From Chiloscyllium plagiosum (taxonomy: Eukaryota): a DNA stretch of 64,000 nt. The notes under the pieces were generated by a model. That model saw only the letters and a list, made by a program, of their open reading frames with translations, was not told the origin of the DNA and made no database searches. Position numbers and translations under genes: made by a program. Below are positions 3,880 through 63,768 of this stretch, one piece after another. The DNA is taken from contig NC_057719.1 of assembly GCF_004010195.1 (NCBI RefSeq), positions 29,694,419-29,758,418 on the forward strand, in the 5' to 3' direction. Each line of letters opens with the position of its first letter. Positions within the stretch are counted from its first letter, which is position 1.

Positions 3880-4862
3880 CCAGAAAGCCCTCCACCTCAC
3901 CACTCCATTCCCCATCGCACTGCTCTAAACCACCCCTTTCTAAATGCAATAAAGACAGAGTCTCACTTGTCCTCACTTAACACCCTACCAATCTCTGCTT
4001 CCAACCCATCATCCTTAAGCACTTCCGCCAACTCCAACTAGACCCCACCACTTCTTCCCTTTCACACTCTTCTCTGCCTTCCACAAGGACCGTTCCCTTT
4101 GCCAAGCCTTGGTTTACGCCACTCTCCCCAACAACCCTCCAAACCCCCAGGTACCTTCCCATGCAACCGGAAAAGATGCAAACCTATGGCACACCATCCC
4201 CCTATCTCCATCCAGGGCCCCAAACAGTCCTTCTAGGTGAGACAGAGGTTCACCGTTCCCTCCTTGAACCCAATTTATTGTATGCAGTGCTCCCAATATG
4301 GTCTTCTGTACACTGGGAAGACCAAACATAAACTAAGAGAACATTTCACTGAGCATCTCAGTCAGGTTCGCAGGGGCCGATGGGGCCTCACAGTAACCGC
4401 CCATTTTAAATTCCCCCTGCCACTCTCTTTCCGACATGACCATCCTTGACCTCCTCCATTGCCACAATGAATCAAATCGTAAATTGGAGGAACAACACTC
4501 ATCTTCCACTTGGACACCCTACAGCCCAGATGACTCAACATAGAGTTCTCCAATTTCAAATTACCTCCCTTTCCATCCACCGACTCCCTTCACAGCCCCT
4601 CCTCTCTTTTCCATACCTCTCAGCCACCTACCAGATTCATGCCTCCCATTGACCAATCAGACCGTACCCTTTACTTGAGTTCACCTATCCCCTTCTCAAC
4701 ACCCTTCATCCCACCCCCTTTATCTGCAGCTCCCTTTACATCCACCCTAGTCCTGAAGAAGGGTTACACCTGAAAAGTCGACTTCTTCATTTTCTGACCT
4801 TGCCTGGCTTTTTGCGTTCACCCAGGCTCCTGCTTGTCTGCCCTGAATTCCAACATTTTGTT
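3880..4862 (+). mobile_element. Penelope-like element 3' part (GIY-YIG endonuclease and pseudo-LTR), decayed
   Basis: IYCMQCSQYGLLYTGKTKHKLREHFTEH (GIY-YIG with CxxC-like insert); hammerhead-like motif at 4749-4782. Confidence 0.85.
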
Positions 4863-5460
4863 TTGTTTGCCTCCAACCCCAGAATGCCGACAGGGCCTCA
4901 GTTTAATATCTCTTATGAAAGGTGATACTTGCAACAATGTAGCACTACCACAGCATCACTCTGGATTATCAGTCTAGGTCTTTGTGCTCAAGTCTCTGGA
5001 GTGGGACCTACAACCAGAGGTAAACTTGCTGCTAATGAACCACAGCTGAATGTAGTAGTAGTAGCGCTGATCTGTCTGGCAGGCTTCACAAAAGGTGCAT
5101 GGTGCAATGACTGAAGACAACATATTACTTTGTATGCTCCATATAAAAAGCCTGGTATATCTGTTCAGTAAAAGGATTCCACTCCTTCAAAGTACAACTG
5201 GTTTCAAATCTCCCCAGCAGCCATCACAACACTTACATTCATGCCACAAGTAACATCATGAAATAAACAAACAATCGACATGATACAAGTAATGCTTTTG
5301 CTTCCTACGCAGTTTTGGAGGAGCTTTGCTGTAACATTCTTACCACATCTTCAAGCTTCATCATGGGGTGGTAGGGACAACATGCATACTGCATTTAGTG
5401 GGTAAGAATTGGGCTTGCTTTAGATGTGCTGGAAAATGGGGTTAGAATAGTTAAATTCTT

Positions 5461-5628
5461 CAAAGTTTGTGCGAAGATTTGTAGCTCGGGTGCTCGTTGT
5501 TATGGTTCTGTTCGCCGAGCTGGAAGTTTTTGTTGCAAACGTTTCGTCCCCTGGCTAGGCGACATCATCAGTGCTTGGGAGCCTCCTGCGAAGCACTTCT
5601 TTGATGTTTCCTCCGGTGTTTATAGTGG
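5461..5628 (-). mobile_element. PLE family B solo pseudo-LTR cassette
   Basis: 9-bp TSD taaattctt at 5452-5460 and 5629-5637; same sequence as the terminus of the GIY-YIG-coding element at 25094-25947. Confidence 0.88.
5535..5574 (-). ncRNA. Minimal type-I hammerhead ribozyme motif, intact core
   Basis: Minus strand gca-CUGAUGA-u-GUCgCCUagccAGGgGAC-GAAA-CG-UU-ugc; stem I gca/ugc, palindromic AACGUU stem III. Confidence 0.8.
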
Positions 5629-5915
5629 TAAATTCTTGTTTGTGACTGGCACAGACTTGATAGGTTGAAGGGATTTTTCTGTGCTGTGGACGTCTGCTTC
5701 TATGTATTGGATAAAGTCTAGACTTCTATTGGAATGTATGGATAGCTGCTAAGTTTTGGATTCACCTTACTGTCAAATATGAAAATGTTACTAAGTACAT
5801 TAGGTTCTTTCAGAGTCTACTTTTTCTTTCATTTTATTTTCTTTAACCATAGACTTATTCAAAGATCGCTAACTATTTTTGGAAAGCAAATCTAGTGCAA
5901 TATACTATTTGTTAC

Positions 5916-6056
5916 CTGTATCATTTGCACATCTGGTGTTCACTTTTCGAGGTCTGTAGACAGAATTTGCGTTTGGATACTTCAACTGTTCAACAGGTTC
6001 TGAATCGATGGCCTGAACACTATGACCAAGGAAAACTTTGGCAATAATGAGCTGAC
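5916..6056 (-). CDS. LRRC9: LRRC9 coding exon H
   Basis: ttgtttttag|GT...G|gtaaca; 141 nt, phase 1-1; QLIIAKVFLGHSVQAIDSEPVEQLKYPNANSVYRPRKVNTRCANDT(G). Confidence 0.93.
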
Positions 6057-9023: not shown

Positions 9024-9054
9024 CAGAGAGAGAGAGAGAGACAGACAGAGACAG
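9024..9054. repeat. (AG)n/(AGAC)n microsatellite
   Basis: cagagagagagagagagacagacagagacag. Confidence 0.85.
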
Positions 9055-15769: not shown

Positions 15770-15906
15770 AAAACCGAAAGAACTGTGGATGCTGAAAATC
15801 AGAGACAAAATTAGAAATTAGAATAGGAAAATCTCAGCGGGTCTGGCAGCATCTGTGGAGAGAAATCAAAGTTAATGCTTCAGGTTGAGTGATCCATCTC
15901 AGAATG
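15770..15906 (-). mobile_element. PLE-type pseudo-LTR fragment (family D), decayed
   Basis: ctccacagatgctgccagac unit, also at 29020-29150 and 51845-51945. Confidence 0.6.
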
Positions 15907-19050: not shown

Positions 19051-19055
19051 AGCTT

Positions 19056-19403: not shown

Positions 19404-19419
19404 TGGAGTAGCCATGGAT

Positions 19420-20180
19420 CGACCTCATCCTTCTAAATTCCATAGAGTATAGACCCAGAATCCTCAACTGCTCCTCATATGACACGTTCTTCCTTCCCAG
19501 AACCACTCTTGTTAACCTCCTTCAGACCTTCTCCAAGGCCAGCACATCCTTCCTTACAAAGTTCAAAACTGCTTACAATATTTCAAACATCTGATCAGAG
19601 CTTTAAACAGTCTCAGCAATAAATCTCTGCTCTTATAATTCAGTCCTCGCAAAATGAATGTTAACATTGTATTTGCCTTCCTAACTGTGAACTGAACCTG
19701 CATGTTAACCTTAAGAGAATCTTGAACTTGGATTCCTGAGACCCTTTGTGCGACAGATTTTCCAAAGCCTTTCCTCATTTAGAAAATAGTGCATGCTTCT
19801 ATTCTTCCTACCAAAGTGCATAACATCACACTTTTCTACATCATATTCCATCTGCCACTTCTTTGCCTACTTTCCTAGCCCGTCCAAGTTTCTCTGCAGC
19901 TTTCCTGCTTGTGGCAGGTGGGGAGTGAATGAGGCGGGACACCTATCACACCGTAACGAAGGTGTCCCAAGGCGAGCTCAAATGAGGCGGGACAACTGTC
20001 ACACCGTCATGAAGGTGTCCTAAGACGAGCTCAGGGAGGAGAGCAACCTCCCATGGAGCAACACTACATGTCCCTTCACTTATCTTTGTGTCATCTGCAA
20101 ACTTAGCAACAATGCCCTCAGTTCTTTCATCCAGATCATTAATGGATAACATGAACAGTTGGTCCCAACAATGGCCCCTG
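19420..20180 (-). mobile_element. CR1 LINE RT fragment with an internal insert at 19910-20058
   Basis: INDLDERTEGIVAKFADDTK and QDSLKVNMQVQ motifs. Confidence 0.85.
19928..20033. repeat. 2 x 53-bp CpG-rich tandem repeat with internal hairpin
   Basis: Units 19928-19980 and 19981-20033; stem gggacacct/aggtgtccc in unit 1. Confidence 0.9.
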
Positions 20181-20206: not shown

Positions 20207-20331
20207 GTTCTGGATGTAAGTTTTTGTTGCTGAGCTGGAAGGTTTGTTTTCATGAAAACAAACCTTCCAGCTCAGTGAGCAAACTTACATCCAGAACCTC
20301 AACCTGAGCCACAAATCTTCTGAAAACTCGC
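20207..20331. mobile_element. Palindromic PLE family B pseudo-LTR tail cassette
   Basis: Perfect 46-bp palindrome at 20230-20275 within longer imperfect arms; matches the pseudo-LTR tail at 45965-46030. Confidence 0.85.
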
Positions 20332-20699
20332 TAATGGTTGTCTTTGTGTTGAAGGATGATCAAGATCATGTTTATTACTCAGGACTGTGAGGAAACATAA
20401 AACATGTAGCAGTAAACAGGATTTCAATTTATTAGTATGATTTATTGAATGTAAAAAGGAACACTGTAGTATAGTTCCTTTAAAACACAATAGCGACTGC
20501 TTTCAAATTATTTTATTGGCTGTAAAATGCCTTGGGATAGCCAGAGGCTCTGAAAGGCATTACATACATGGAAGTTATTGTTTTCTTAAAGTGATGAGTT
20601 GTAGATTATTGCTTTGTACAAAATTAGCAAGATTTTAAAAGTTGTTTTGTAAGACTGTATTTAAAAAGTAATTTAAAAGCTGCAATTAAAACAACTTAC

Positions 20700-22410: not shown

Positions 22411-22537
22411 GGAGAAAGTGAGGACTGCAGATGCTGGAGATCAGAGCTGAAAATGTGTTGCTGGAAAAGCACAGATCAGGCAGCATCCAAGGAACAGGAG
22501 AATCGACATTTCGGGCATAAGCCCTTCTTCAGGAATA
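22411..22537 (-). mobile_element. PLE family A solo pseudo-LTR cassette inserted in CR1
   Basis: Perfect 14-bp TSD tgatatgttcctca at 22397-22410 and 22538-22551. Confidence 0.92.
22501..22536 (-). ncRNA. Minimal hammerhead ribozyme motif
   Basis: auuc-CUGAAGA-a-GGGCuuauGCCC-GAAA-UG-UC-gauu; C>U change in the stem III palindrome. Confidence 0.65.
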
Positions 22538-24234
22538 TGATATGTTCCTCACTGCATTTTCCTGCCATTCTAAAAGTTCTTCCCATTACTCTAAGGCTGT
22601 GCCCCCAGGTCCTTGTCTCTCCTACCAATGGAAACATCTTCCCAATATCCACTCTGACCAGGCCATTCAGTATTCTGCAAGTTTCAATTAGACCCCTCTC
22701 ATCTTTCTAACTCGATTGAGTATGGACCCAGAGTCCTCAAACGTTCTTTATATGTTAGGCTATTCATTCCTGGAACCATTCTTGTAAACCTTCTCTGAAC
22801 ATGCTCTGGCTCAATACATCCTTCCTGAGATATAGGGCCCAAAACTGTACACAGTACTCCAAATGTGGCCAGACCAGAGCCTTATTGAGCCTCAGAAGTA
22901 CATCCCTGCTTTTATTTTCAAGTCCTCTCAAAATAAATGCCATCATTGCATTTGCCTTCCTAACTACTGATTCAATCTGCAAGTTTACCTTGAGAGAATC
23001 CTGGAATAGAACTCCCAAGTCTCTTTGCATTTCAGACTTCTGAATTTCCTCCCCATTTAGAAAATAGTCCATGCCTCTATTCTTCCTACCAAAGTGCATG
23101 TGACCTCACACTTTTCCACATTGTACTCCATCTGCCAAGTCTCTGCCCACTCTTCCAACCTGTCCAAATCATTCTGCAGACTCACTGCCTCCTCAATGAT
23201 ACCTATCCCTCTACCTACAAGCTTAGCCAGAAAGTCATCAGTTCCTTTGTCTATATCATTAATGCATGAAGTGAAAAGTTGTGGTCCTAACACTAAGCCT
23301 TGCAGAACACCACTTGTCACTGGCTGCCATCCTGAGAGGGACTCTTTTACTCCCAATCTCTGCTTTTGGCCAGACAAGCAGGCTTCTATCCATGCTAGCA
23401 CCTTGCTTGTAACATCACCGGCCCTTATCTTACTCAATAGCCTCCTATGTGGCACCTTGTCAAAAGCCTTCTTTAATTCCAGGTAGATAATGTCCTTTGG
23501 CTTTCCTTGGTCTAATCTGCTCATTACTTCATCAAAGAATTCTAGCAGATTTGTCAGGCGTGACCTTCCCTTCATGAAACCATGCTGACGTGGTTTTATT
23601 TTACCATACATTTCCAAGTATTCAGAAATTGCTTCCTTCACGATGAATTCCAGGATTTTACCCACGACCGAGGTTAGGTTAATTGGTCTGCAATTTTCAG
23701 TCTTCTGTCTTACTCCCTTTTTAAACAGGGGTATTATATTAGTGATTTTCCAGTCCTCTGGGACCCTCCCTGATTCTAGTGATTCCTGAAAGATTACCAC
23801 TAATGCCTCCGCTATCTCTGTAGCTGTTTCCTTTAGAACTCTGGGGTGTAGTCCATCTGGTCCAGGTGATTTATACACCTTCATTCAAGCCATTAGTTTT
23901 TCTCGCACCTTCTCCTCGGTAACGGTCACCATACTCAGCTCTGTCCCCTCACTCTCTTGGGTTTTTGGGAAATTACTCGTGTTTTCCACTGTGAAGACCG
24001 ATGCAAAGTAATTATTTAGTTCCTCAGCCATTTCTTTGTTCCCCACTACAATCTCTCCTGCATCATTTTCCAGTGGCCCAACATCCACTTTTGCCTCTCT
24101 TTTGCCCTCTACATATCTAAAGAAACTCTTACAATCTTTCTTTAAATTACTGACTAGCATGCCCTCATTTCCATCCTTAATTTTTTTTTCATTGCCCTCT
24201 TTGTAAGCTTCAACCTTTCACTCCAATACAAATT

Positions 24235-25093: not shown

Positions 25094-25947
25094 TCAAAGT
25101 TTGTGAGAAGATTTGTAGCTCGGGTGCTTGTTGTTGTGGTTCTGTTTGCCGAGCTAGAAGTTTTTGTTGCAAATGTTTCGTCCACTGTCTTGGTGACATC
25201 CTCAGTGCTTGGGAGTCTCCTGTGAAGCGCTTCTGTGGTGTTTCCTCTGGCATTTATAGTGGCCTGTCCCTGCCGCTTCCGGTTGTCAGTTTCAGCTGTC
25301 CGCTGTAGTGGCCGGTATATTGGGTCCAGGTCGATGTGTTTGTTGATGGAGTTTGTGGATGAGTGCCGTGCTTCTAGGAATTCCCTGGCTGTTCTTTGTT
25401 TGGCTTGCCCTATAATGGTAGTGTTTTCCCAGTCAAATTCATGTTGCTTGTCGTCTGCTTGTGTGGCTACTAGGGATAGCTGGTCGTGTCATTTCGTGGC
25501 TAATTGGTGTTCGTGGATGCGGATCGTTAGCTATCTTCCTGTTTGTCCTATATAGTGTTTTGTGCAGTCCTTGCATGGGATTTTGTACACTACATTAGTT
25601 TTGCTCATGCTGGGTATCGGGTCCTTCATTTTGGTGAGCTGTTGTCTGAGAGTGGCTGTTGGTTTGTGTGCTGTTATAAGTCCTAGGGGTCGCAGTAGTC
25701 TGGCTGTCATTTCAGAGATGTTCTTGATGTGGTAGTGTGGCTAGTCCTTTGGGTTGCGGCATGTCCTCGTTCTGTTGTCTTTCCCTTAGGCATCTGTTGA
25801 TGAAATTGCGAGGATATCCGTTTTTTGCGAATACCTTGTATAGGTGTTCCTCTTCCTCTTTTTGCAGTTCTGGTGTGCTGCAGTGTGTTGTGGCCCTTTT
25901 GAATAGTGTCTTGATGCAACTTCGTTTGTGTGTATTGAACCACAGCT
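25094..25947 (-). mobile_element. Penelope-like element family B, 5'-truncated (RT thumb, GIY-YIG, pseudo-LTR)
   Basis: 11-bp TSD tcttttagaat at 25083-25093 and 25948-25958; minus strand encodes VVYKIPCKDCTKHYIGQTGR; hammerhead motif at 25169-25208. Confidence 0.92.
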
Positions 25948-28460: not shown

Positions 28461-30590
28461 ACTGTCAAGGCATTCAGTTGAATTGAATTAAACTGAATTA
28501 GCTTGGTTGTCACATGTAACCAAACATGTATAGTGAAAAGCTTATAGGTCACCACTTACAGCACCGTCTTAGGCACAAAGGTACCTCGGTACAATCCTTA
28601 GTTTCAGGATAGAGAAGTTAAGAAATAAAGTTACATTATAGCTATACACAGTATAGCCATAGATCAGAAAAACAAGAAGCAAAGTTAAAAAGACAAACAT
28701 TACACAGTACAAGTACCAAGTCAGAAAGGAATGAAACCAGATGAATGACTCAGTAGTGCTTGAGTTGCCAAAATGTCCTCACACGTAGGAATGGACATCA
28801 CACTGTCCACATAGCTCTGCACTAATTTGGTACCCAATTCCTCCATGCTTTCTCAAATTACATGAAAGCTTTCTGGCAGATTTTCTATTGCTCCAAATCT
28901 TTCAAGTTTCATTAAAATGCTCATCCGTGTTCTCAGAACATATGTATAATCTTGCTGGCACCTATACCACCCTTGTCCCACACCATGGCTGAATGGGCAC
29001 ATTAGCTTTTTAACAATAGAAATGTTCCAAGGAGCGTTATTGGACCAAAAACGTTTATTGTTTCTCTCTCTACAGATGCTGCCAGACATTTTGTGTTTCT
29101 CCAGCAATTTCTGCTTTTATTTCAAATTTCCAGCATCTGTAGTATTTTACTTTCACATGTGGTGAGGGGAGTTGGGCAAACTGTCTGCAGTTTGAACAGA
29201 GAACAAAAATTGTGGGAAAAATAATTAGGACCAAAAGAAAAGGTCTGGGTACAAGGGTACAGTCATCATTTTTTGTTTAACAATCACTCTTAGCCACATT
29301 CTCACATTCATACCCATTCCCTGTTGATCACATCCCAATCTGTTCTGTAAGAGACAGAGAACAAAGTAGCAAGACAGATTATAGCTGTGTAGAATTATGA
29401 AAGGATGAGATGAAACCAGGAATATTATGAATGACTCCTGATTGATGGAGAATGTGCATTGAACATTGTGAGAATAGTGGTGCAGCGGGTGGAATATGAA
29501 GTATGAAAATATATTCATTGACTTCAACCTTTGAATTTATTGTGATACTACGTTTACAACACTAGGGCCACTCTCCTGACATTGATCACCACTATTATTT
29601 GCTCCCAAAACCATTTTCAAAGATTGGATCGTGGGTTTATTGGCCTTTGTGGACAGATTATGTTTAGCCTTCTCTCCACTACAATTTCCAGCATCTGGGA
29701 AACTTGGAACAGGCTCTGGTTCCTTTTGCATTAAATTGATTATATCCTGCTCAGATTTCTCTTCCACGATCAACTCCAACAAAAACACAGTTCTCCTCTT
29801 TTATTTTTTTAAGATCAATCTAATTGGTCACAATATGGCCACATCTCAGAGGTACCTGAACTCAGATCTTCTGGCCTAGACATAGGGATAATACCCTGCA
29901 CCATAAAACCCTTGCAGCTCTCCTTTAAGAGTATAGACTGACTTTAAATAGAGTAGGTTAGCTGTAAGCAGTATTAGTTTCACATGACCGTGGGCTTCAG
30001 CTCAGATATGCTACCATTCAGCAACACATTTATTTAGGCAACAATCACACAAATTATCAAACAGCAGATATTTTTAATCAATCTGCTCATGCATGTTACA
30101 AGACATTTCTGGAGCAGGTACGACTTGAACCCTACCACTGTGACACAAGGCCCTTGTTATCAGGCAGCATGCTATCCGAACAAGCTGATGCAGACGACCA
30201 TCCATTACAATCCCCATGCTTTATCTCAGGGACTGTATAATATAATCCCATTGTTTCCTTGAAAAACATTATAGTACTCAGTTATAGTTTTATAAAAACA
30301 ATACTAGGAAGTATAAGTTCATGCCATTAGAAAACCTATTTCTCAATGTGAACAAGACTGTGGGAAATCCCTGGATGGAATTAAAAATGAGAATAATATC
30401 CTATTAAGGACTAAATGATTGCTGTCATTGCTGAGGATCTATATGCTGTGTTTGCTAGAAACTAAGCAATCACCTCAAGTTTCAAGAGGAATTATTCTGT
30501 TCACTTTTAATTACTGTTCTAAATAATATTTGAAATTTGGTGATTAAGTATTACGAGGTTTCTGTTAGGAATTTGTAGTTATCACCATAC

Positions 30591-36350: not shown

Positions 36351-37589
36351 ATTGTGGAAAGTATTACTGCACTTTTTAAAAGCAGGTTACTGACACTCAT
36401 TACAAATGCTCTTTTTTCAAGCAGTCGGGAAAACATAGTTAAACAAACTGGAACAAGGGCATTTATACAAAATGAGATTCGGCTGGTAACAAGTAGCCAA
36501 TCAATCTTTGGAATCATGACTGATTATCAATGACAAAGGTCTTCTCTCCTGCCAACAACTATGTCATTAGCTCCAACGCAGCTGAACAGCTTGAGTGTGT
36601 GAATGTTTGGGCGGAAGCCATTGGACCTTTGGCCAGGAAGATTCTGCAATTTCCACTGCTATAAAAATAACAGCTCAAGTTTTAAGAAAACCTGTTTATT
36701 TCCCTTCAAAACTGACTTCTAAACAATAAGTCAGGGACATAAGAAGTGCAAATCATGTGTGCCTCCTAAAAATAAATGAATGAACAAAGAGATGATCAAG
36801 AAGTGATCAGTGCTGACAAGCCAAAGTATCATCTCACTGAATATTATGCATAGGAATCACTGAACTGATTTCCCAGTCTATCACTCTGCCTGTAACACCC
36901 ATTCTTGTTTTGTGTCTGTGTTTGTATGTAGGAGCAATATTATAAGGGGTTTAGAATTTAAACTGGCAGTCCAAGAATCTATTTATTTCTAATAAATAGC
37001 AATTTCTTTAAAGATAGAAACCTGGGCCCATCTTTCTGTCAACTAGGATCTAAGAGACATAAAAATTCAAAAATTGTATCCCTTTAAAGCATCTTTAAAC
37101 TTTGCAAACACACCAGGAATAGAGGGACTTGATTTCCAGCATTCTACCCCAGTGAGGCAAGAACATTAAAGCATTAAAATAGTTGTGGAGGTGGTTTTCA
37201 GAGAAGGGGAACATAAGGGAGCTAAACAAAAGGATTTGCCAGCATTGCCAGGGCAGCTATTTGAATAGTGATACTCAGTTGGACAGGAAGGAACAGATTG
37301 AATAGAGTATAGAGAAACAGAATCAAATAGGGTCAAAAGACAAAAATGTTCACTCTTCACTTATATACACACATTGTATTCGTAACAAAATAAGTAAACT
37401 AACAATGCAAAAAGGTTAATGGGAACAATCTTCCAGACATTGCAGAGACAGAGCTTCATGGAGATCAAAACCGGAGAGTAAATGTTTGGAGCTGTGAGAC
37501 TTTTCAAAAGCATAAGCAGAAAGGAATGGACAGTGACATAGCTTTGTCAGTACAAGATAGAATAAGTACAATAACTGGAAATAATCTTA

Positions 37590-39820: not shown

Positions 39821-39941
39821 AAGTGAGGTCTGCAGATGCTGGAGATCAGAGCTGAGGAAGGGCTTATGCCTGAAACATCGATTCTCCTGTTCCCTGGATG
39901 CTGCCTGACCTGCTGCGCTGTTGCAGCAACACATTTTCAGC
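39821..39941. mobile_element. PLE family A inverted pseudo-LTR cassette
   Basis: 19-bp direct repeat ttccttcaagcagaggaga at 39802-39820 and 39942-39960; CUGAGGA-GGGCuuauGCCU-GAAA-CAUC. Confidence 0.9.
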
Positions 39942-40787
39942 TTCCTTCAAGCAGAGGAGATTGAGAGGGGACATGATTGTGATGCATAAAATTGTGAGGG
40001 GCACAGATAGAGCAGACAGGAAGAAACTGTCTGATGGAAGGATCAATGAGCAGGGGCACAGATTTAAGGTAAGGGGCGGAAGGTTTGGAGAAGATGTGAG
40101 GAAATATTTTTCCTGGACTTACTGCTTGTAAGGGTGGTAGAGACAGGAACCCTCATAACATTTAAGAAGCATTTAGATGTGCACTTGTGATGCACAAGTT
40201 TACAAGGCTATGAGCCAAGTGCTGAAAAATGGGTTTAAATAAGTCAGGTGGCTGTTTTTGACCAGCACTGACATAATGGACCAAAGGACCTTTTTCAGGG
40301 CTGTAAATATCTATGACTATGAAATAAATACAACAATTATCACTGAAGCAAAGTACTAAGGAAACTAATGGGGTTAAAGGCCAATAGGCCACCTGGACCT
40401 GATGGATTACATCCTAGGATATTCAACAAAGTGACTACAGAGATAATGAATACATTAGTAGGAATCTTCCAACAATCCTTAAATTCTTGGAATCTTGGAA
40501 AATTGCCATTGTTATACCCTTATTCAAAAAGGAAGGAGATAAGCAACAGGATACCATAGGCCAGTTAGCTTAATATCTGTCATCGGGAAAATGTTAAGAG
40601 TCTATATTAAAGGGTGTAATACCAAAACATTTAGAAATGCAATATCATCAAAGAGAGTCAGCAGGGTTTCATGAAGAGGAAATCATGGCTGACAAATTTT
40701 ACAAGAATTCTTGGAGGAGATAATGAATAAAAAGTAAAACCAGTAGATTTCCAAAAAAACGTTTTAGTAAATTATCATACATTGAGC

Positions 40788-41211
40788 CCAAAGTTTGGGT
40801 GAAGATTTGTAGCTCGGGTGCTCGTTGTTGTGGTTCTGTTCGCCGAGCTGGAAATTTTTGTTGCAAACGTTTCGTCCCCTGTCTAGGTGACATCCTCAGT
40901 GCTTGGGAGCCTCCTGTGAAGCACTTCTGTGGTGTTTCCTCCGGCCAAACAAAGAACAGCCAGGGAATTCCTAGAAGCATGGTATTCATCCACAAACTCC
41001 ATCAACAAACACATCGACCTGGACCCAATATACCGGCCACTGCAGCGGACAGCTGAAACTGACAACCGGGAGCGGCAGGGACAGGCCACTATAAATGCCG
41101 GAGGAAACACCACAGAAGCGCTTCACAGGAGGCTCCCAAGCACTGAGGATGTCACCTAGACAGGGGACAAAACGTTTGCAACAAAAACTTCCAGCTCGGC
41201 GAACAGAACCA
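40788..41211. mobile_element. PLE family B fold-back insertion with two inverted pseudo-LTRs
   Basis: 12-bp TSD catacattgagc at 40776-40787 and 41212-41223; arms at about 40829-40945 and 41097-41213. Confidence 0.93.
40863..40902 (-). ncRNA. Minimal type-I hammerhead ribozyme motif, intact core
   Basis: gca-CUGAGGA-u-GUCaCCUagacAGGgGAC-GAAA-CG-UU-ugc; the inverted partner at 41140-41179 has GAAA>AAAA. Confidence 0.8.
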
Positions 41212-41489
41212 CATACATTGAGCTCCTTAATAATATAAGAGTATATGGTGTTGGAGTAATATATTAGAATGGATAGAGGATTATTTAATATAAGAGAGAG
41301 TTCGGTTAAAGGGGGCATTTTCAGATTGTCAATCTGTAGCTGGTGGAGTGCCACAGAGAGCAGAAGTTAGAATATAATAAAGGAAAATAAAACTTATGCA
41401 CTTTGGTGGGAAGTATAGAGGAGCTGAATATTATTTAAATAGAAAAATGCAGGGTCCTTGTGCATAAAAAGAATATTAGAACATTATTT

Positions 41490-41893
41490 TAATGAGCCAC
41501 CACACTCTGCAGCACAGAGGAACTAAGAAGAGCAGAGGAAAATCACCTTACAATGTATTCAAAAAGAACGGTACCCAACGAACATAATCTGCCTGATTTC
41601 TCAGCAACAAACCCAAACAAGCAAACAAAACACATCCAGAAACCCTAGTCACTCTCCCTACATCAAAGACATCACGGAAATGACTGCCAGACTACTCAGA
41701 CCCCTTGGCATCATGGTAGTCCACAAACCCACCAACACACTAAAACAGCAGCTAATGAACTTGAAGGAACCTATACAGACAACAAGCAAAACTAATGACA
41801 TTTACAAAACACCTTGCAAGAACTGTAACAAACACTATATTGGACAAACAGGCAGAAAACTAGCCACCAGGATACATGAACATCAACTAGCCA
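41490..41893 (+). mobile_element. Penelope-like family B GIY-YIG fragment
   Basis: MTARLLRPLGIMVVHKP...IYKTPCKNCNKHYIGQTGRKLATRIHEHQLA. Confidence 0.9.
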
Positions 41894-43742
41894 TCATGAC
41901 TAGTGGTTCGTTTAGATCGTGCACCTGGAACATAAAAGGGAGCCATTCCTCTATCAGAAGAAATAAGGTACTCTCAAACTTCAGAAAGGAAAGGGTTGAC
42001 ATCACCCTGTTACAGGTAACATATTTGAATGACAAGGAGCATTGAAGTTACAGCAGGGAGTATTTATTAGGGTATTTTTCTCCTCTTTCAATTCTAAAAG
42101 CAGAGGAGTGGTCATACTGGTACAGAGGAACCTCCCATTCCAGATAATAGAACAAATTAAGGATGAACATGGGCGGTTCATCATCCTCAAGGCCTTAAAT
42201 CACAGGGAAGAGTATGGCATCCTGAATGTCTACTGCCCCCGATGGACCCCTTAATTCTTAATCGACACATTCTCCAAATTAATGGCTCTTGGGGTGCGCC
42301 ATAGGAATAGACTTCAACCGTCTCACAGACCCTGAGGTAGACAGGATGCCAAGGGGTGTCTCAGGTATCTCCCTGCAATCCAGACAACTAGTGGACTTGT
42401 GTGGGGAGTTTGTAGGGATTTTACCTTTTACTCCAACCTGCACAGTGCAACACAAGAATTTTATGTTCTTTGTTCCATCGATCTGTCTGGATTCAGTGTT
42501 ATCCTGCAGGATTGGGAACATAGCCATTTTGAATCATGCGGCAGTGTACTTGGATGTCAAGATCAGGGCTAGTGGAATAGCTACGCCGCACTGGTGCGTG
42601 GATCCATTTCTTTTGAAGGATAACAAATTTATAGAGTAGTTCACAAGGCAATTGAGGACCTTCTGGGACATCAACTCAGGTATGGCCAGTAACCCATCAG
42701 TGTTTTGGGAAACCACCAAGGCATATTTAAGGGATTTAATAATTTCATACTCAGCAACTCGGAAAAGGCAGAGCAGCAGTGGATGCTTGAGGCCTGCTTG
42801 AAAGCAGCCAAATCAGCATATTATGATAGACCATCTGTGGTTAAGCTATAGCGGGTCACAGCTCTCTAGCCTGCTCTGAGTTCAGTACATACCCAGGCAG
42901 CGAAGAGAGAGGTTTCCTTTACGAAGCAAAGCTTATTCGAATATGGGGATAAGTCAGGTAGATATCTGGTGTATCTGGCTAGGGATAAGTGGCCCGCGGT
43001 CCATCATGTCCACTAGGGAGAGATCCGGTAGTATCACTCGTGAGTTGAAAAAGATTAATGCCATACTCTGGAAATTTTATGCAGTTATATCAGTCGGAGG
43101 GTTGTGAGGATGGAGTAACAAGAATGGAATCCTTTTTTGAGCATCTGGACCTCCCAGGTATAAATGCAGAGTAAGCCTCCCTTTTGAATGCACCCTTAAC
43201 AATACAAAAGATAGAAGAGATACAAGAGGCAGTAAGGCAGCTCCAAAGTGGCAAAGCACCTGGCCCAGACAGATTCCCGAGTGAGTTCTAAAAAGAAATT
43301 CATAAACATGTTGGACGAGCCAGTATTGGGTGTGTACAATCATTCATACAGCCAGGACTGCCTTCCGCCTTCTTTTAGGGAGGCCACTATCTCCCTTATT
43401 CTAAAGGAAGGGAAAGATCCTGAGGACTGTGCCTCATATAGATCTATCTCACTGCTTAACGTAGATTTTAAAATCCTATCTAAAACGCTAGCCCTGAGAT
43501 TGGAGAAGGTACTGCCCACTATCATAAAGGAAGACCAGACGGGTTTTATCAAGGGTTGTAGCTCTTCCAATAATATCAGGAGGGTGTTTAATATAGTACA
43601 GGTATGCCAGCAGAGTCAATTCCAGGCTTGGTGCTCTCCTTGGATGTGAAAAAGGTGTATGATTGGGTGGAGTGGCTGTAGCTATTTGGTGCCCCTGGAA
43701 CATTTTGGTCTTGGGGAGACCTTCGTTAGATGGATGATAGTG

Positions 43743-43822
43743 ATGCTGCCTGACGTGCTGCGCTTTTCCAGCAACACATTTTTCAGCTCTGATCTCCAGC
43801 ATCTGCAGTCCTCACTTTCTCC
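43743..43822 (+). mobile_element. 80-bp PLE family A pseudo-LTR tail inserted in the L1 RT
   Basis: 5-bp TSD tagtg at 43738-43742 and 43823-43827; splits RWMIV|LYNNP. Confidence 0.88.
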
Positions 43823-45181
43823 TAGTGCTATATAACAACCCCAAGGCTGAGGTCCTTACGAGTGGCGTAAAATCAGATACTTTTAGCATTGGGAGAGGCA
43901 GCTGGCAAGGGTGTCCTCTCTCGCCACTGCTATTTATCTTAGCAATCGAAGCATTGGCGGAAGCTATTCAGAAGGACTCTGAAATAGCAGCGCCAAAGGT
44001 CGGAATGGGAGAGCACAAAATTACTCTCTACCCTGATGATGTTCTTCTCTTCTTGGCTAACCCAGAAAAGTCTGTACCCCGGCTAATACAAAAGATTAAG
44101 TTATTCGGCATTTTCTCAGGATATAAAATTAACTTTACAAAATCGGAAGCCATGCCCATGGGGGGCTTGGTGGGAGTGCCTGACCTGGAGGATGGAACAC
44201 AATTTCCTTTCTGGTGGTCACAAAAAAGTTTTCTTAATTTGGATATTTTTATTATCCCTGCTTTCCACCAGCTATACAGAGCTAACTTTGTGCACTTGTT
44301 TGATACGATAAAACAGGATCTACAGTGTTGGGAGGAGTTACCAATATCATGGTTAGGCTGAATAGCCTTGATTAAAATGAATATTCTTCCTCAGCTACTA
44401 TACCCTATGAGAATGCTCCCATTGTTGTTGCCCAGACAAGTTCTGTGGAAGTTCAATAGCTGGCTTCTGTCCTTCATTTGGTATCGTAAGCGCCCTCTTA
44501 TTAAATTTACCAAGTTGCAACTCCCTAGAGTATTGGGACGGGGGTGTGGATCTCCCAGATTTTAAGCAATACCAAATAAGGGCCCTATTGTCCTATGAGA
44601 GTGACTGGGATCCAAGGTTGATATGGCTTGATATTGAGGCCTCTCAGGCAATGTATCCCCTCTTTAACTTATTATTTATGGATAGGATGAAATCTGTTGC
44701 TGAGCATTGTAAAAGACCAATCATCATAAACATGCTCAAAGTGTGGAGAATGATGTAGCAGGGCAAGGGTAGTTTACATAAGACCTCACCTTTCAGCCCC
44801 TTAGCAGGAGCCCCAGAATTTAGGCCAGGGTCAATGGATTCTGGCTTTAAAGCATGGGAGGTCAAGGGAATCCCCTATTTGGGAGACTTCTTTGAGGGGG
44901 AGGTCCTGATGTCTTTTAATCAACTAAGTCACAGATATGGGCTACCAAATAGGTACCTCTTCCGTTATTTTCAGATTAGGGATAATATATACAGAAGGAC
45001 CATGCTGACGGCTCAGCCCTAAGTTTGACATGGAGAGAGGAGTGCTCCGGCACGTGGGCACTCTCTCAGTCAGTATTCTATATCATTTACAGACAGGGGG
45101 CACCTTCGAAGATGTGCAAAGACTCTACCGAGTCTGGAATCAGGCACTAAGAGCAGAAATTTTAATTTGAAACTTGGGAGG

Positions 45182-45652: not shown

Positions 45653-46114
45653 GGAGGACATATGGGAGAATGTGAAGAAAATCTCAATATGCAATTTCCT
45701 TTTCTTTTTCTCAGAGGACGATAAATGGGGTCCAAGATGATGTGTTTGTTGATAGAGTTCCGGTTGGAATGCCATGCTTCTAGGTTTGGCTAGTGGTGTG
45801 TTAAGGGGAGGTTTGTATTTAAGATATTTAGGTAGTATCTGTTTCCTTAGGCATTCATGCAGGAAGTACAGCTGTTCGCAGATGGCGCTCTTTCGAATGC
45901 CATTGGTTTCCCATTTTTGGACCAGTTTTAGCATATTGCGCCCATAGGTGTTAATGAGTTTTGATAAGATTTGTAGCTCAGGTTGAGGTTCTGGATGTAA
46001 GTTTCCTCGCTGAGCTGGAAGGTTCGTTTTCAGATGTTTTGTCACCATAGTAGGTAGCTGAAAATGTGTTGCTGGAAAAGCGCAGCAGGTCAGGCAGCAT
46101 CCAGGGAACAGGAG

Positions 46115-46150
46115 AATCGACGTTTCGGGCATAAGCCCTTCTTCAGGAAT
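46115..46150 (-). ncRNA. Minimal hammerhead ribozyme motif, intact core
   Basis: auuc-CUGAAGA-a-GGGCuuauGCCC-GAAA-CG-UC-gauu. Confidence 0.78.
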
Positions 46151-46167
46151 GGAAGAAGGGCTTATGC

Positions 46168-46200
46168 TCCTGAAGAAGGGCTTATGCCCGAAACGTCGAT
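46168..46200 (+). ncRNA. Minimal hammerhead ribozyme motif, intact core
   Basis: uc-CUGAAGA-a-GGGCuuauGCCC-GAAA-CG-UC-ga. Confidence 0.75.
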
Positions 46201-46853
46201 TCTCCTGTTCCCTGGATGCTGCCTGACCTGCTGCGCTTTTCCAGCAACACATTTTCAGCTCTGATCTCCAGCATCTGCAGACCTCAATTTCTCCACCATT
46301 GTAGGTAACATCAGTCAGCCTCTGGTGAAGCACTGATGTTAGAGACCCACTTTCTATTTATGTGTTTAGGTTTCCTTGGAGCATGGCATTCCAACTGGAA
46401 CTCTATCAACAAACACATCAACTTGGACCCCATTTACCACCTGCTGAGAAAAAGAACAGGAAGTAGCATCACCACGGAAATGACATCACCAACCCAAGGA
46501 AACCTAAACACAAATAGAAAATGGGTCACTAATACGATGCTTCACTGGGACTCACTGATGTTATCTAGTATGGTGATGAAATGTCTGAAAACGAACCTTC
46601 CAGCTCAGCAAGTAAATTTATATCCATAAGTTAGGTTAGTCTAGCACAATTTAAGTTAATTTAAACTAATTTGCTAAGTACAGTCATTTATTAAATCTTA
46701 ATATGGAAAGATCGTTTGGTACCTTTGTGATAGTCTTGATTTGTTCTGTAGAGTAGTAGGTAGTTTATTGTTAATGTTTTTGTAATACAAGATTGTTATA
46801 TTTTTGTATTTTTATAATTTTGTGAAAGAATAAAAACCTTGCACAAAAAAAAA

Positions 46854-49402: not shown

Positions 49403-50637
49403 CATACAGTTATACAGCTTGGAAACAGAGCCTTCGATCCAACCAGTCTATGCTGACCATGTTCCCAAACTAAACTAGTCCCACTTGCCTGCACTTGGTC
49501 CATATCCCTCCAAAATTTATCCTATTCATGAATGCATCCAAGTGTCTTTTAAACATTAACTGTACCTGCACCCACCACTTTCTCTGACAGTTCATTCCAC
49601 ACACTAACTACTCTCTGTGAACAAAGTTTCCCCTCATCTACTTTTCAAAACTCTCTTCTCACTTTAAAAATATGCACACTTGTTTTAAACTCCCCCACCC
49701 AAGGGAAAAGACCTTAGGCATCCACCTTATCAATGTTCTTCATGATATTATAAACCTCCAGAAGATCACCCCTAAAACTCCTATGCTCAAGTGAAAAAAA
49801 ATCTTAGTCTTTCCAGTCTAATTTTATATCTCAAAACGTCCATTCCTCGCAACATCCTGGTAAATCTTCTCTGAACCTCTCCAGTTTAATAATATCCTTC
49901 CTATAACAGGGTGACCAAAACTGCACAGAATAGTCCAGAAGAGGCCTTACCAATGCTTTGTACAAACTCAACATGATGTTCCAAACTCAAAGGTCTGAGC
50001 AACGAAGGCAAGTGTGCTAAATGCCTCCTTAACCCTGATGAAGGGCTCCTGCCTGAAACGTTGATTTTCCTGCTCCTCGGATGCTGCCTGACCTGCTGCG
50101 CTTTTCCAGCACCACTCTCATCTTGACTCTAAATCGCCAGCATCTGCAGTCCTCACTTTCACCTTCTTAACCACCCTGCCTACCTATGACACAAATTTCA
50201 AAGAATTGTATACCTGAATCCCTAGGTCTCTGTTCCACAACACTACCCAAGATGCTATCATTAATTGTACAAGTCCTGTCCTTGTTTGTATTAAAAAAAA
50301 TGCAAAACCTCATATTTATCCAAATTAAACTCCATCTACGACTGCTCAGCCAATTGACTCAATTGATCAGAACCTCTTTGTAATCTTGGATAACCTTCAC
50401 TATACCAATTTTGATCTCATCTGCAAACCTACCAACCATGCCTCCTATATTCTCATTCAAATAAATGACAAACAAAAGTGGATGTGTATCACTGGTCACA
50501 GGTCTCCAGTCCAAACAACCCTCCACTATCTCCTAACATAAAGCCAATTTTGTATCCAATTGGCAAGCTCACCTTGAATCCCATGTGTTCTAACTTTGCT
50601 AATTAATCTGCCATGCAGAAAACCTGTCAAAGGCTTT
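49403..50637 (-). mobile_element. CR1 LINE 3' part inserted in Gypsy gag
   Basis: Similar to the 37590-38580 CR1; carries a PLE cassette at 50035-50161. Confidence 0.82.
50035..50161 (+). mobile_element. PLE family A solo pseudo-LTR cassette starting at the hammerhead core
   Basis: 11-bp TSD cctycttaacc at 50024-50034 and 50162-50172; CUGAUGA-a-GGGCuccuGCCU-GAAA-CG-UU. Confidence 0.85.
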
Positions 50638-51349: not shown

Positions 51350-51945
51350 ACAGTCCACCTTTCTCTTTAACTAAGGTTTCATTGTGGTTGACAATGCCCT
51401 CAGACACGTCTGACCTATTTCCACACTTCTGCCTTCACCCCTTCTCTCGCCTCCCACAATGATAGATTGTACCTCGTCTTTACTTTTCATCCACTAGATT
51501 CCGCATCCAAAGGATCATTTCATTTCCACTATCTCCAGCAAAATGTCAGCATTCCGTCTGCGACAATCTGTTCCACTCTCCTTCTGTTCCCAGCATTTCC
51601 CCACATTTCCACAGCACCATCTCACAGAATCACAGATGATGCAACACTTGTCTGTTTACCTCCTAGTATCCTTCTAGCGATTTTTGTCTCTCAATTATAA
51701 TCTTTTAGTTTGCCTATATCTTTTTGCTCTCTCTGCTCACTGTCTCTTTGTACTCTATTCTCTACTACCACTTCTCTCCCCACAGCCCCCCAAACTTCCA
51801 CCCCATCAACATAAATGCTAGTACCACTTCTCCCCAGTTATTTTCAGTTCTGACGAAGTGTCACAGGCCTCAAAACATTAACTCTGCTTCACTCCCTACA
51901 GATTCTGCCAGATCTGCTGAGTTTCTCCACCACTTTCTATTTATA
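51350..51945 (+). mobile_element. Old Penelope-like fragment with family D pseudo-LTR
   Basis: Resembles 3880-4200; agtt-CTGACGA...AAAACATT-aact at 51846-51883. Confidence 0.6.
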
Positions 51946-57102: not shown

Positions 57103-57294
<192 letters not shown>

Positions 57295-59734: not shown

Positions 59735-61045
59735 TTGCATCGACCTGGCAAAGGAAACACTTACCATGCTTTTAGAAGAGACCAGCACACACACCCCAAC
59801 CACCATCAATCACATTACCAACGAAGACATTATGAAGCTAGGGGACCTGTACCTCACCACCCACTTCACCTTCAAGAACATAATCTACAAACAAACCAAC
59901 AGCACACCCATGGGATCTCCACTATCAGGATTCATAGCAGAAGCGGTAATGCAAAGACTAGAACAAACAGCCCTACTAACCATCAAACCCAAAAATCTGG
60001 GTCTGCTACATAGATGACACCTTTGTCATCACAAAACGAAACTAGATAGAAGAGACATTTAACATCATCAACAACACCCTCACAGGCATAAAGTTCACCA
60101 AGGAGGAAGAAACCTACAACAAACTCGCATTCCTGGACGTCACAGTCGAAAGAAGACAACGGAGAACTACAAACCTGCGTATACAGAAAACCGACAAACA
60201 CTGACCAAATACTTAACCACACCAGCAACCATCACAACACATACAAACGAAGCTGTATCAGAACACTATTCCAGCAAGCCACCTCACACAGACGAAGTTC
60301 GGAAAACAGAGGGGAACCACCTATACAACGTATTCAAGAAGAACGGATCTTCAAAAAATACAGTCTGCAGATTCCTCAAGAACAAACCAGGGCAAGCAGA
60401 CCAAACACAGCCAGAAACCCTAACCACCTTACCATACAGCAAAGAAGTTTCAGAAATGACAGCCAGACTACTAAGACCCCTCGGAATCCTAGTAGCACAT
60501 AAACCCACCAACACTCTCAAACAAAAACTAACAAACTTAAAAGACCCAGTACAACCTATGGACAAAACCAATGTTGTCTATAAAATTCCATGCAAGAACT
60601 GCCACAAACACTACGTAGGACAAACAGGAAGAAAGTTAGCCATCAGGATACACGAACACCAGCTAGCCACAAAAAGACACGACCCTCTCTCCCTTGTAGC
60701 CCTACACACGGAGGAAAAAAAACCACCATTTCGACTGAGACAACACATCTATACTGGGACAGGCTAAGCCAAGACATGCCAGAGGATTCCTAGAGGCCAG
60801 GCACTCCAACCACAATGCCATAAACAAACACATAGATCTAGGTACCATCTATCAACCCCTCAGAAAACGAACAGGAAATGACATCACCACAAACCCCAGG
60901 AACCCCATCCAGGACAAACATATAAATAGAAAGCAGGAGACAACAGCTTCGCTTCACTTGGAGGTCGTCACTGATGATGTTACCTAGCCAGATAATGAAA
61001 TGCCTGGATATCGAAGCTACAGCTCAGCAAGCAAACCTACACCCC
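59735..61045 (+). mobile_element. Penelope-like family B element (RT, GIY-YIG, pseudo-LTR), 5'-truncated
   Basis: YKQTNSTPMGSPLSGFIAEAVMQRLE, YIDD, VVYKIPCKNCHKHYVGQTGR; hammerhead-like motif at 60968-61007. Confidence 0.93.
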
Positions 61046-61649
61046 ACAAAATAAACTTGCCTGAAAACATTCGGATTTATTCATTTCATACTTGTATGCT
61101 TTATTATTGCATACTCACAATGACTGTCAAATGATCTCTCCAGTACTAAAGCTTGATCAATGTGGAGTTATAGTCCTTCAGATTTCAATTGTTGATGGAG
61201 ATTTTTTTAAAAAAGAATTTCCTTCCATCTCTTTAATAATCTCTTAACATTAAATTTTTATTTTCCTTGCTTAATTCACCTTTTTGAATTCAATGTCAAA
61301 TTATGTACAGTGTTCAAATTTACACTTTCTGGTTCAGACATTTTAGGTTCACTGAATAATTCTTCAATCTAATTGGTCGAAGAGATGCGCAAGTACCTTG
61401 GCTGGAGTTTAGAAAGTCCACTTCGTAATAGAAACATGCAGCTACAGCTACTGATCAAGTGAGCATAGGTGAGTGTACTCAACAAATAAAATAGGTTACT
61501 AGTCAAGTCTTTTGGGCCACTGCAAAGTTATGTGGCTAGGATCAATTTGGAATTAATTAAACAAACCCTAGGAAATTCAAATGTAATTCAGTCCACATTT
61601 TAAAGCCTTACATTTAGCCCTTATTTTTAAACACCAAATCTGATAATTT

Positions 61650-62395
61650 GGTGAGCAGGAGTAGGCTATTCACTTCTTCAAGCATGTTGTCATTCAAAAT
61701 GATTATGGTTGATCAGCAACTCAGGAACCTGTTCCCACTTCCTCCCCTTAGCCTTTGATCCTTCAGTACTAAGAACTGTATCTAATGCCTTCTCGACAGC
61801 ATTCAATGTTTTGGCCTCAACTGCTTTCTGTGACAGAGAATTCCATAGGCTCACCATTCTTAGTAAAGAATGTTGCCTCATCTCAGTCCTAAATGGAACC
61901 TCCTGTATTCTCAAACCATGACCCCTGGTTCTGGACTCCCATGTCACCGGGAATGCCCTTCCTGTGTTTACCTCTATAGTGCTTTAGAAATTTATAGATT
62001 TCTTCTAAATAGTGGTGATATAGTCCTAACCTAGTGGGGCGGCACAGTGACTCAGTGGTTAGTACTGTTGCGTCACATCACCAGGGTCCTGGGTTCGATT
62101 CCAACCTCAGGTGACTGTGTGGAGTTTGCACATTCTCCCACTGTCTGCGTGGGTTTCCTCCGGTTTCCTCCCACAGTCCAAAGATGTGCAGGCTAGGTGA
62201 ATTGGCCATGCTTAAATTATCAATTAGGTACATTAGTCAGAGGGGAAAAGGGGTTTGGGTGTGGTCCTGTTGGGCGAAGGGGCCTGTTTCCACACTGTAG
62301 GGAATCTAATCTATCCAGTCTCCCCTCACAAGTCAGTCCTGCCATCTCAGGAATCAAATTGCTAAACCTTTATGGCACTCCCTTCATAGCCAGAA
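61650..62395 (-). mobile_element. CR1 3' fragment interrupted by an HE1-like SINE
   Basis: ESRTRGHGLRIQEVPFRTEMR...LWNSLSQKAVEA. Confidence 0.82.
62036..62313 (+). mobile_element. HE1-like tRNA-derived V-SINE
   Basis: A box tgactcagtgg at 62048-62058; B box ggttcgattcc at 62092-62102; V-domain tgtgtggagtttgcacattctccc...gggtttcctcc; CR1-like 3' end. Confidence 0.88.
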
Positions 62396-63649
62396 CATCC
62401 ATTGTCTCACCAAGACCCTTTATGATTGTAGCTTGTTGTGTAAAGTATAGCAGCTTATGAATTAAAAAATACTTAGAATGCAAAAACAGAATAAAGATGT
62501 AAGAGCAGTTGATATCACTGAAGCAGAAAGGTTTCCATGCTAGGCCTGATTTTGTAATGCATAATTAGTAGCTTTCAACTGTGTTGTGTGCTAATAACGT
62601 ACAGTCCTCACAATTTACATTATTCACCCTTGTTCCAGGCCACTGCCGTCATAATTGAATTTCAGAGGCACTGTTTATAACATATTAAGCCACCAGCAAT
62701 TGTCTATTGTCAAAAAACAACCCATCTAGTTCACTCATGTCCTTTAGGGAAGGAAATCAGTCATCCTTACCTGGTGTAGACCCACATAATGTGGTTGACT
62801 CTTAACTTCCCTCTGAGCAACTAGAAATGGGCAATAAATAATGGTCTAGCCAGAGATGCCCACTTCTCATGATCAAACAGAGAAAAAAAGAAACAATTGA
62901 TTGAAGCAGCTTGTTGTAGCAACCCATGACTAAAGTTGAGAAGATGGCAGCCTGGGGCTTTTTTAGTTGACACAAGATGGCTGAAAGGGGGTTGACAGCC
63001 TACATACAGATGTTCACAGCTAGACCCATGGTGTCCTCATAGAGATACTGGATAAGATGAGATTCTCCGTAGGGATAAAAATTAGGAAAATCAATCAGGT
63101 TTCTGTAAACAGGCAGTTCTAAATATAAGCATTTTAACAAGGAACAGTTTTGAAAGGCCTAGTTTAGCCGCAGTTTCAAGTTTGTAATTTAGAAAAAAGT
63201 AGAAGAAAACATCTGATCTCTCAGTATTCTGAATTCATTAGGTAATTGTAGAATTGGAAAGGCAAAATAGTATGAAAAGGTTAGTTGGATTCTTTGAGCA
63301 AATCTTTGTAGGCAGTGCATTATTATGAAAGATACAGTAATAATAGATGGTGTAAACACAACCTTAAAAAAACCATTGGCACAGGAGGAGAGCAGAGGAA
63401 GATTGTAAAAAGAGAGAGGTCACAACTAGGGAGAGATAAAAAAAATTGAAACAATGCATATGTAGATAACTTGAACAAATTCTTACATCCAAAGATCAAG
63501 GATAAGTGACAAAGCCAAATTACAACATACAGAGAGTGAAGATGTGGCTATGTGGTTATTTGTGGAATCTAAACAAGTTTTGTTTAAAGACTTCATAAAG
63601 CTGTAAAGTGATTGAATTTTACCCTTGTCAGTGGAATTTGATTAGATGT

Positions 63650-63768
63650 TTTTGGATGTAAGTTTGCTCACTGAGCTGGGAGGTTCATTTTCAGATGTGC
63701 ACTATGATACTAGGCAACATCATCAGTGAGTCTCCAGTGAAGCATTAGTGCTGTGACCCGCTTTTATT
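63650..63768 (-). mobile_element. PLE family B pseudo-LTR fragment, decayed
   Basis: Similar to 45990-46350; tca-CTGATGA...tga with GAAA lost. Confidence 0.75.

Follow-up and report, generated by a model that had tools for sequence, protein, structure and literature searches.

Whether the hammerhead ribozymes carried by Penelope-like elements (PLEs) cut their RNA in animal cells has been left open in the available portions of the published accounts: PMC4209133 gives no in vivo evidence, PMC8557442 calls their function unclear and in PMC11167929 no RNA ends were found at the site. The question is raised here by a stretch of 64,000 nucleotides of the shark Chiloscyllium plagiosum (contig NC_057719.1, positions 29,694,419 to 29,758,418; hereafter the window), in which dispersed hammerhead-shaped repeats had been predicted from the letters alone. 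These motifs are minimal type-I hammerheads in the pseudo-long terminal repeats (pLTRs) of dead, truncated PLEs, belonging to one Poseidon and two Neptune families, and the positions at which the genomic copies begin make it likely that, in the germ line, a small part of the Poseidon RNA is cut by its hammerhead. With slightly less confidence, we read these copies as a fossil record of in vivo self-cleavage by Poseidon, in which a germ-line cut would remove the cap and the start codon and the cut RNA would be copied by twin priming and could be ligated to U6; Neptune has no such footprint, so that activity would differ by clade and could be read from the 5' ends.

By sequence, the copies fall into three unrelated pLTR families, one of Poseidon (family B, with the four subfamilies B1 to B4) and two of Neptune (A and C). 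In all three, the hammerhead lies on the sense strand, 380–900 nt downstream of GIY-YIG motifs. In family B the distance is about 385–395 nt and the GIY-YIG motif is without a Cys linker (the copy at 59900-61044 also includes the end of the reverse transcriptase, RT), whereas family A has upstream RT and GIY-YIG with a Cys linker (loci L068 and L038), as does family C (L159 and L186), which is unrelated to A. The Penelope/Poseidon and Neptune types are told apart by the Zn-finger-like Cys motif of the linker that joins RT to endonuclease (EN) (PMC8557442); thus family B is of the Penelope/Poseidon type, and A and C are of the Neptune type, an assignment made by motif, Nematis having the same one. 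The closest named proteins come from Stegostoma and Chiloscyllium, both carpet sharks, as would be expected of a shark host. The PLE fragments of the window went unrecognised by Pfam, and a Pfam GIY-YIG search of the genome was uninformative.

The ends of the copies, counted from C3 as position 0, were compared with the first nucleotide of the predicted cleavage product, N1.1, which falls at +34 in B, +28 in A and +29 in C. Each family has two 3' ends, at about +90 and +124 in A, +75 and +108 in B, and +85 and +122 in C, and the pairs of copies that lie head to head nearly always combine one long-tail and one short-tail arm. The inverted 5' copy, the tail on one arm and the target duplication are traits of the insertions of EN-bearing (EN+) PLEs, and all three recur here. 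The 5' ends of Poseidon B are spread overall; however, the most informative object in the window, which the original prediction did not include, is a Poseidon B2 head-to-head insertion at 20207-20333 in which both arms start from N1.1 (+34). Its junction lies at 20252/20253, its arms end at about +78 and +109, and a target duplication is present on both sides.

Genome-wide, a pattern of B2/B3 tails placed head to head with a gap of 0–30 nt retrieved 44 loci; 35 were fetched, and the remaining 9, visibly not of the double-N1.1 kind, were kept in the denominator. Both arms started at N1.1 (gap 16) in 18 of the 44 B2 junctions, 15 of them clean and 3 with point changes, and such a concentration at one of 31 gap lengths has a P of about 7e-16. 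Among the arm starts that could be parsed in the fetched loci, 44 of 70 fell at +34. The 18 double-N1.1 pairs have unrelated flanks, with a candidate target duplication of 8–16 bp in 16 of them, and in 17 one arm ends at +107–109 and the other at +72–86. Subfamily B4, which has a different stem I, gave both arms at N1.1 in 4 of 7 pairs: two are blunt (one with a point change) and two carry 2–5 inserted bases (one parsed as overlap). Single arms were searched with patterns that demand three non-element bases upstream, for which the chance of a random-flank match varies about twofold between offsets; the B2 starts numbered 6 at +33, 122 at +34 and 29 at +35, and 14 of the last look by eye like other events.

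These palindromes might all go back to a single non-autonomous fold-back element, or have arisen through microhomology, in which case they would be uninformative on RNA ends. We give this explanation hardly any weight, and for B2 and B4 it is largely refuted. A 6-nt palindrome can explain the B1 junctions, those of Neptune are largely driven by microhomology, and junction palindromes of rotifer PLEs have been attributed to self-priming (PMC3846280). On the other hand, microhomology is absent from the N1.1 junctions of B2 and B4, which show no overlap, and these two subfamilies of different sequence each have N1.1 pairs of their own. Moreover, the arms end at the same two sites as in other head-to-head pairs, whatever the junction, and long and single arms also start at N1.1.

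The two Neptune families served as a control from the same genome. Among young Neptune A copies, 34 of 65 start at -4 to +5 and none at the cut (+28), and among Neptune C copies 37 of 96 begin between -14 and -1, with a TATA-like box about 30 nt upstream, and again none begins at the cut (+29). These 5' ends probably mark the start of the RNA near the front edge of the hammerhead, although microhomology may contribute. Neptune A had no cut-site pairs in the first 50 listed of 912, despite the palindrome on its cut site, which differs from the B2 footprint with a Fisher value of 1e-7. In Neptune C no blunt double-N1.1 junction was present in the first 50 listed of 426, although a few arms lay near the site.

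The main rival is that the hammerhead folds without cutting, and that the reverse transcriptase stalls at the folded core or jumps over it, leaving ends at N1.1. Minimal hammerheads of metazoans show low activity in vitro (PMC4209133), some ends lie 1–4 nt 3' of N1.1, and, the 5' strand of stem I being complementary to N1.1–1.3, a jump over the core would also read TCA|TGA. A structural stop would be expected, instead, at the 3' edge of stem I (+37) and not after the stem has been copied through. Precise core-skip copies were absent from the 19 fetched B2 matches preceded by TCA and from 7 B4 matches preceded by CCA or CCG, among which the locus L328 is ambiguous, and Neptune A and C share the fold but not the peak. 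We therefore regard the stall or jump as unlikely, though it is the alternative to be taken most seriously.

A protein nuclease, of the host or of the element, could also cut the folded RNA at the same bond. The RNA of PAc, the Poseidon of Anolis carolinensis, was in fact cut only in the presence of protein (PMC11167929); however, in the same work the C3G and G8C mutants lost the cut, the double mutant regained part of it and mutants of GIY-YIG left it unaffected, and in the shark the site obeys the hammerhead rule in subfamilies that differ at N1.1–1.3. Such a nuclease appears to us quite improbable.

Hammerhead cleavage leaves a 5'-OH end. At one of 17 loci (L304; G000:C16:2825972, 1330-1570), both arms of a fold-back B2 insertion carry a 3' fragment of U6, with Rfam E values of 7e-8 and 2e-5 that fall short of the gathering score; the plus arm joins the U6 fragment at N1.1 and the junction of the other arm is changed. 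RtcB is the enzyme that joins U6 to 5'-OH RNA (PMC6789731), and a join of this kind requires a free RNA end, which speaks against a stall or jump of the reverse transcriptase.

The segment 25090-25520 was compared with one contig set and with two poly(A) runs from single cells. One run gave 445 reads and the other none, in a library type that cannot show 5'-OH ends; 71% of the 445 reads continue into unlike sequence, and no pile-up of ends was seen in this library type, blind as it is to such ends. None of the database records listed as carrying the element is recorded as RNA. Two further B4 loci have composite structures: at L322 three segments meet at N1.1, and at L329, around 1503, sense sequence of the N-terminal open reading frame (ORF) part is joined to N1.1.

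The original prediction had rested on covariation of the stems across families; this comparison was rejected, since unrelated families picked by a structure descriptor make it circular, and Neptune A passes through mismatched states. Within family B, compensatory stem changes are real. In an alignment of 31 genomic copies (23 distinct), chosen by core pattern, 91.7% of the cells pair; the pair 2.3-1.3 is seen as G-C, C-G, U-A and U-G, whereas stem II shows U-A, C-G and U-G at its third pair. The covariation score was 0.287 against 0.168 in shuffles (none of 500 reached it) and 0.02–0.10 for slid partners, a score that reflects few events between four subfamilies and from which relatedness was not removed. 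Pairs with double changes number 2, which is not above shuffles, and 10 of the 23 rows lack pairing at one position of stem II.

In Neptune A, the older clusters (10–16% divergence) have AGUU/AACU or AGUC/GACU as stem I, the abundant ones (5–9%) have AUUC/GAUU with its U·U mismatch, and the youngest (1.2%) has AUUC/GAAU, with the U-A pair back; the temporal order of these states would follow from the divergences. The motif might be kept only as promoter and coding sequence, with a TATA box or initiator upstream and the ORF start inside, and not as a selected RNA structure. In family B the 3' half does double as the opening codons of the ORF, and Neptune A tolerates the stem I mismatch over several subfamilies. 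Nevertheless, in the double changes a base outside the coding sequence is matched to a first codon position (2.3-1.3: G-C, C-G, U-A), stem II changes among C-G, U-G and U-A, the youngest Neptune subfamily has U-A again, and the core is common to unrelated clades, so that this explanation is very improbable.

Two further observations concern Neptune A. In loci L044-L047 a near-identical (99.7–100%) non-ORF segment of 340–580 nt replaces part of the ORF, about 340–660 nt upstream of the query match, and is possibly the mark of a young non-autonomous derivative. In L014 and other long copies, inspected by eye from -26 to +85, two complementary stretches, one about 20 nt upstream of the core and the other about 70–80 nt downstream, could form a long-range helix, and a pyrimidine tract ending in AG just upstream resembles a 3' splice site.

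To evaluate how far the motifs exceed chance, we used a strict type-I descriptor (CUGANGA, an optional bulge, stem II of at least 3 bp, GAAA, a palindromic insert, UH and stem I of at least 2 bp). A scan of this kind had been proposed together with the original prediction, and in the window it gave 4 matches (C3 at 5571-, 40899-, 46146- and 46170+), where 100 dinucleotide shuffles gave 0.02 on average. The genome (3.56 Gb) was sampled at 140 loci, at round-number positions picked blind (1,341,659 bases). The first 80 of these (764,666 non-N bases) gave 38 matches against none in 10 shuffles, and all 140 gave 76, so that a whole genome would hold roughly 2 x 10^5. Profile matches in any state of decay numbered 437 in the same 1.34 Mb, or roughly 10^6 per genome; for family C the profile gave 95 matches in 1.34 Mb. 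The extra base between 9 and 10.1, as a 1-nt bulge, and a 2-nt palindromic insert were present in 38 of the 38 strict matches listed, the stem III region is ACGU or AGCU in 75 of 76, and the G10.1-C11.1 pair, a trait of the minimal pLTR hammerheads, is there. The CUGANGA and GAAA-NUH core with stems I and II is thus found, though most individual copies are decayed. A scan of the window with Rfam covariance models returned no hammerhead at E<=5. No tandem array of hammerhead-bearing repeat units occurs in the window, where the copies are dispersed or head to head. The profile search of the window found about 24 copies or tail fragments, and its elements are as follows.

419-510 and 3321-3413, minus strand: two decayed Neptune A copies.
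700-870: Neptune C head-to-head pair, truncated within stem II; cac/gug stem I, AGCU stem III, CUA cut triplet.
4749-4783, plus strand: hammerhead of the Neptune A lineage, older subfamily with aguc/gacu and GGGU/ACCU; core boxes intact, stem III palindrome lost.
5461-5629, minus strand: Poseidon B1 pLTR stub and tail; hammerhead intact (5535-5574), the bond between 5538 and 5537 being the predicted cut.
15826-15903, minus strand: pLTR stub of the D type (A lineage), decayed, core broken.
20207-20333: the Poseidon B2 head-to-head insertion described above.
22411-22536, minus strand: Neptune A stub; stem III palindrome lost, core boxes intact.
25095-25937, minus strand: Poseidon B1 3' fragment with GIY-YIG, pLTR and tail; hammerhead at 25169-25208, stems II and III decayed.
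29026-29117, plus strand: D-type stub, decayed, core broken.
33875-33939, plus strand: Neptune A tail fragment without core.
34840-34935, plus strand: Neptune A stub, G12>A.
35831-36351, plus strand: Poseidon B3 3' fragment with GIY-YIG; hammerhead at 36272-36310 (cca/ugg), G5>U.
39852-39942, plus strand: Neptune A stub truncated at C3, without the 5' strand of stem I.
40788-41213: Poseidon B1 head-to-head pair with a 12-bp target duplication; intact hammerhead at 40863-40902 (minus) and a G12>A copy at 41140-41179 (plus).
43742-43823, plus strand: Neptune A tail fragment without core.
45784-46056, minus strand: Poseidon B2 arm with stem II, tail, then a stop-free N-terminal ORF part.
46056-46294: young Neptune A head-to-head pair with a 13-bp target duplication; hammerheads at 46115-46150 (minus) and 46168-46201 (plus), U·U mismatch in stem I.
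46295-46629, plus strand: Poseidon B2 pLTR arm; hammerhead at about 46552-46588 (uca/uga), 3-nt core deletion.
50028-50164, plus strand: Neptune A stub; core intact, stem I 5' strand pairing 1 bp at most.
51846-51944, plus strand: D-type stub (aguu/aacu), G12>A, stem III decayed.
59900-61044, plus strand: Poseidon B4 fragment with RT end, GIY-YIG and pLTR; hammerhead at 60968-61007 with U16.1>C.
63644-63731, minus strand: Poseidon B2 stub, GAAA lost.

The Neptune A pair at 46056-46294 is nested inside an older Poseidon B2 pair (45784-46629), which agrees with the relative divergences. The types at 4749 and 51846 have their tail in common with family A and cluster with it, which suggests that the D (51846) type belongs to the A lineage; a parent ORF of this type was not found. 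LINE-type (long interspersed nuclear element) RVT_1 fragments lie at 23057-23884, 32462-33472 and 43236-44361, unrelated to the hammerhead elements, and one interrupts the Poseidon fragment at 41474-41893. Two-copy tandem duplications are present at 31-430 (200 bp) and 19928-20033 (53 bp).

In the light of this list, the hammerhead-shaped repeats are where they had been predicted, real and far above chance by the strict descriptor, and the stem variants gca/ugc, cca/ugg, uca/uga, aguc/gacu, aguu/aacu and GGGC/GCCC proved genuine subfamily traits. That the core is kept holds less well: of the nine examples named for stem I, two (5535 and 40863) pass the strict descriptor and seven fail, two of these (4749 and 25169) having both core boxes but no stem III palindrome, and five having a broken core, mostly through CpG decay (41140 and 51846 by G12>A, 36272 by G5>U, 46553 by the 3-nt deletion, 63691 by loss of GAAA). 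The flanks were said to stay paired, which fails in family A, where the commonest stem I, AUUC/GAUU, has the U·U mismatch (18 of 76 strict matches). The palindrome given as AACGUU at 51846 reads AACAUU, and the AGCU stem III, although the family exists, occurs in the window only at 700-870, truncated and beyond the range that had been indicated. A PLE origin, type-I minimal hammerheads, a shark host and several lineages are supported by the GIY-YIG context and the carpet shark proteins; in place of the supposed four or more equal lineages there are two clades, which hold three pLTR families unrelated to one another and many subfamilies.

How such insertions could arise may be outlined as follows. 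The element protein would nick both target strands, and each strand would prime reverse transcription at its own internal site, the two sites lying just 3' of the hammerhead; both cDNAs would extend to the 5' end of the RNA and then be joined head to head. This RNA end would usually lie upstream, in uncut RNA, and sometimes be the 5'-OH left by self-cleavage; for uncut Neptune RNA it would lie close to where transcription likely starts, at the hammerhead's front edge. In the B2 arm at 45784-46056 an open frame runs from stem II into an N-terminal PLE-like region, and sister copies have an ATG in that frame at A9-U-G10.1 of the hammerhead, which is likely the start codon of the Poseidon ORF. 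The Poseidon cut would therefore remove the cap and the start codon, sparing both priming sites. PAc, whose hammerhead cleaves only with its protein, also primes at two internal sites (PMC11167929). The cut might accordingly be a protein-assisted switch from message to template, a suggestion we make tentatively and at somewhat less than even chances; it would otherwise be a tolerated side reaction.

Several observations weigh against self-cleavage by Poseidon. Cut-site starts make up about 1–2% of B2 tails (no more than 122, set against 5,480 tails whose upstream sequence is intact), so that most copies derive from uncut RNA, and of 100 listed B2 matches at +34, 45 are of the fold-back type and about 29 look by eye like internal deletions. 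The B4 single arms, 1, 19 and 12 at +33, +34 and +35, form a weak peak in which 5 of 19 are deletions. In B1, 12 of 17 junctions are centred on the 6-nt palindrome spanning the cut site; compatible yet ambiguous, they were set aside. B3 gave no blunt double-N1.1 pairs among the 44 loci, only single arms. The U6 join is a single B2 case, exact patterns giving none for Neptune A or B1 tails. On monomer folding, stem II alone was formed and stem I was not in the hammerhead register, no better than in shuffles in 7 of 7, although poor folding is expected for this minimal class. In Anolis, hammerhead mutants still inserted in vitro and no RNA reads ended at the cut (PMC11167929), and Naiad PLEs thrive without hammerheads (PMC8557442).

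The motif class, the fish hosts and the shape of the insertions are already in print; the phenomenon had been presented as known, correctly, since pLTR minimal hammerheads of metazoan PLEs, including Xena, Poseidon and Neptune of fish, were described in 2014 (Cervera and De la Pena, PMC4209133). In the full-text literature searched, which includes few subscription papers, we did not find genomic 5' ends at a PLE hammerhead cut, U6 joins there or twin priming by PLEs, nor PLE hammerhead cutting shown in animals in vivo. A catalogue of motifs alone would be ordinary and the footprint is the added result: the sharp and replicated clustering of insertion ends on the scissile bond, together with a negative control from the same genome, is a cheap in vivo read-out for any PLE-rich genome, and it names sequences that should cut (B2, B4) and others that may not (A, C).

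The shark motifs resemble those of PMC4209133: the topology is type I, stem I is short, an extra base stands between 9 and 10.1, the G10.1-C11.1 pair is present, stem III is a palindrome, and there are thousands of dispersed single copies as well as opposite-strand pairs; they differ in that their ends, not analysed in the available text of that study, pile up at the cut, in Poseidon only. The two supplement files of that study that were searched contain no shark terms. As in PAc (Frangieh et al. 2024, PMC11167929), the ORF runs from stem II and the cut lies 26–28 nt downstream of its start codon, the tail comes from two internal priming sites and both target strands are extended; unlike PAc, for which that account gives no RNA reads ending at the cut and no strand asymmetry of priming in vitro, the shark has genomic copies that begin at the cut and pairs made of one long-tail and one short-tail arm. 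The insertions of EN+ PLEs (PMC3846280, PMC8557442) share the head-to-head arms, the optional 30–40 bp tail at one end and the target duplications of 8–16 bp, whereas here the junction is tied to the hammerhead, to which those accounts assign no clear function. Non-LTR retrozymes (bioRxiv 10.64898/2026.07.22.740005) likewise have PLE-derived type-I hammerheads, with one chondrichthyan genome reported, but form tandem arrays, whereas the window copies are dispersed or head to head. U6/L1 chimeras (PMC6789731) offer a parallel for U6 joined to 5'-OH RNA before reverse transcription. Finally, as with the hepatitis delta virus (HDV)-like ribozyme of R2 (PMC3774820), a ribozyme cut would set the genomic 5' junction; in R2 the cut makes the full-length template, whereas in the shark, with another ribozyme class and another element, it would be a minority route that drops the start codon.

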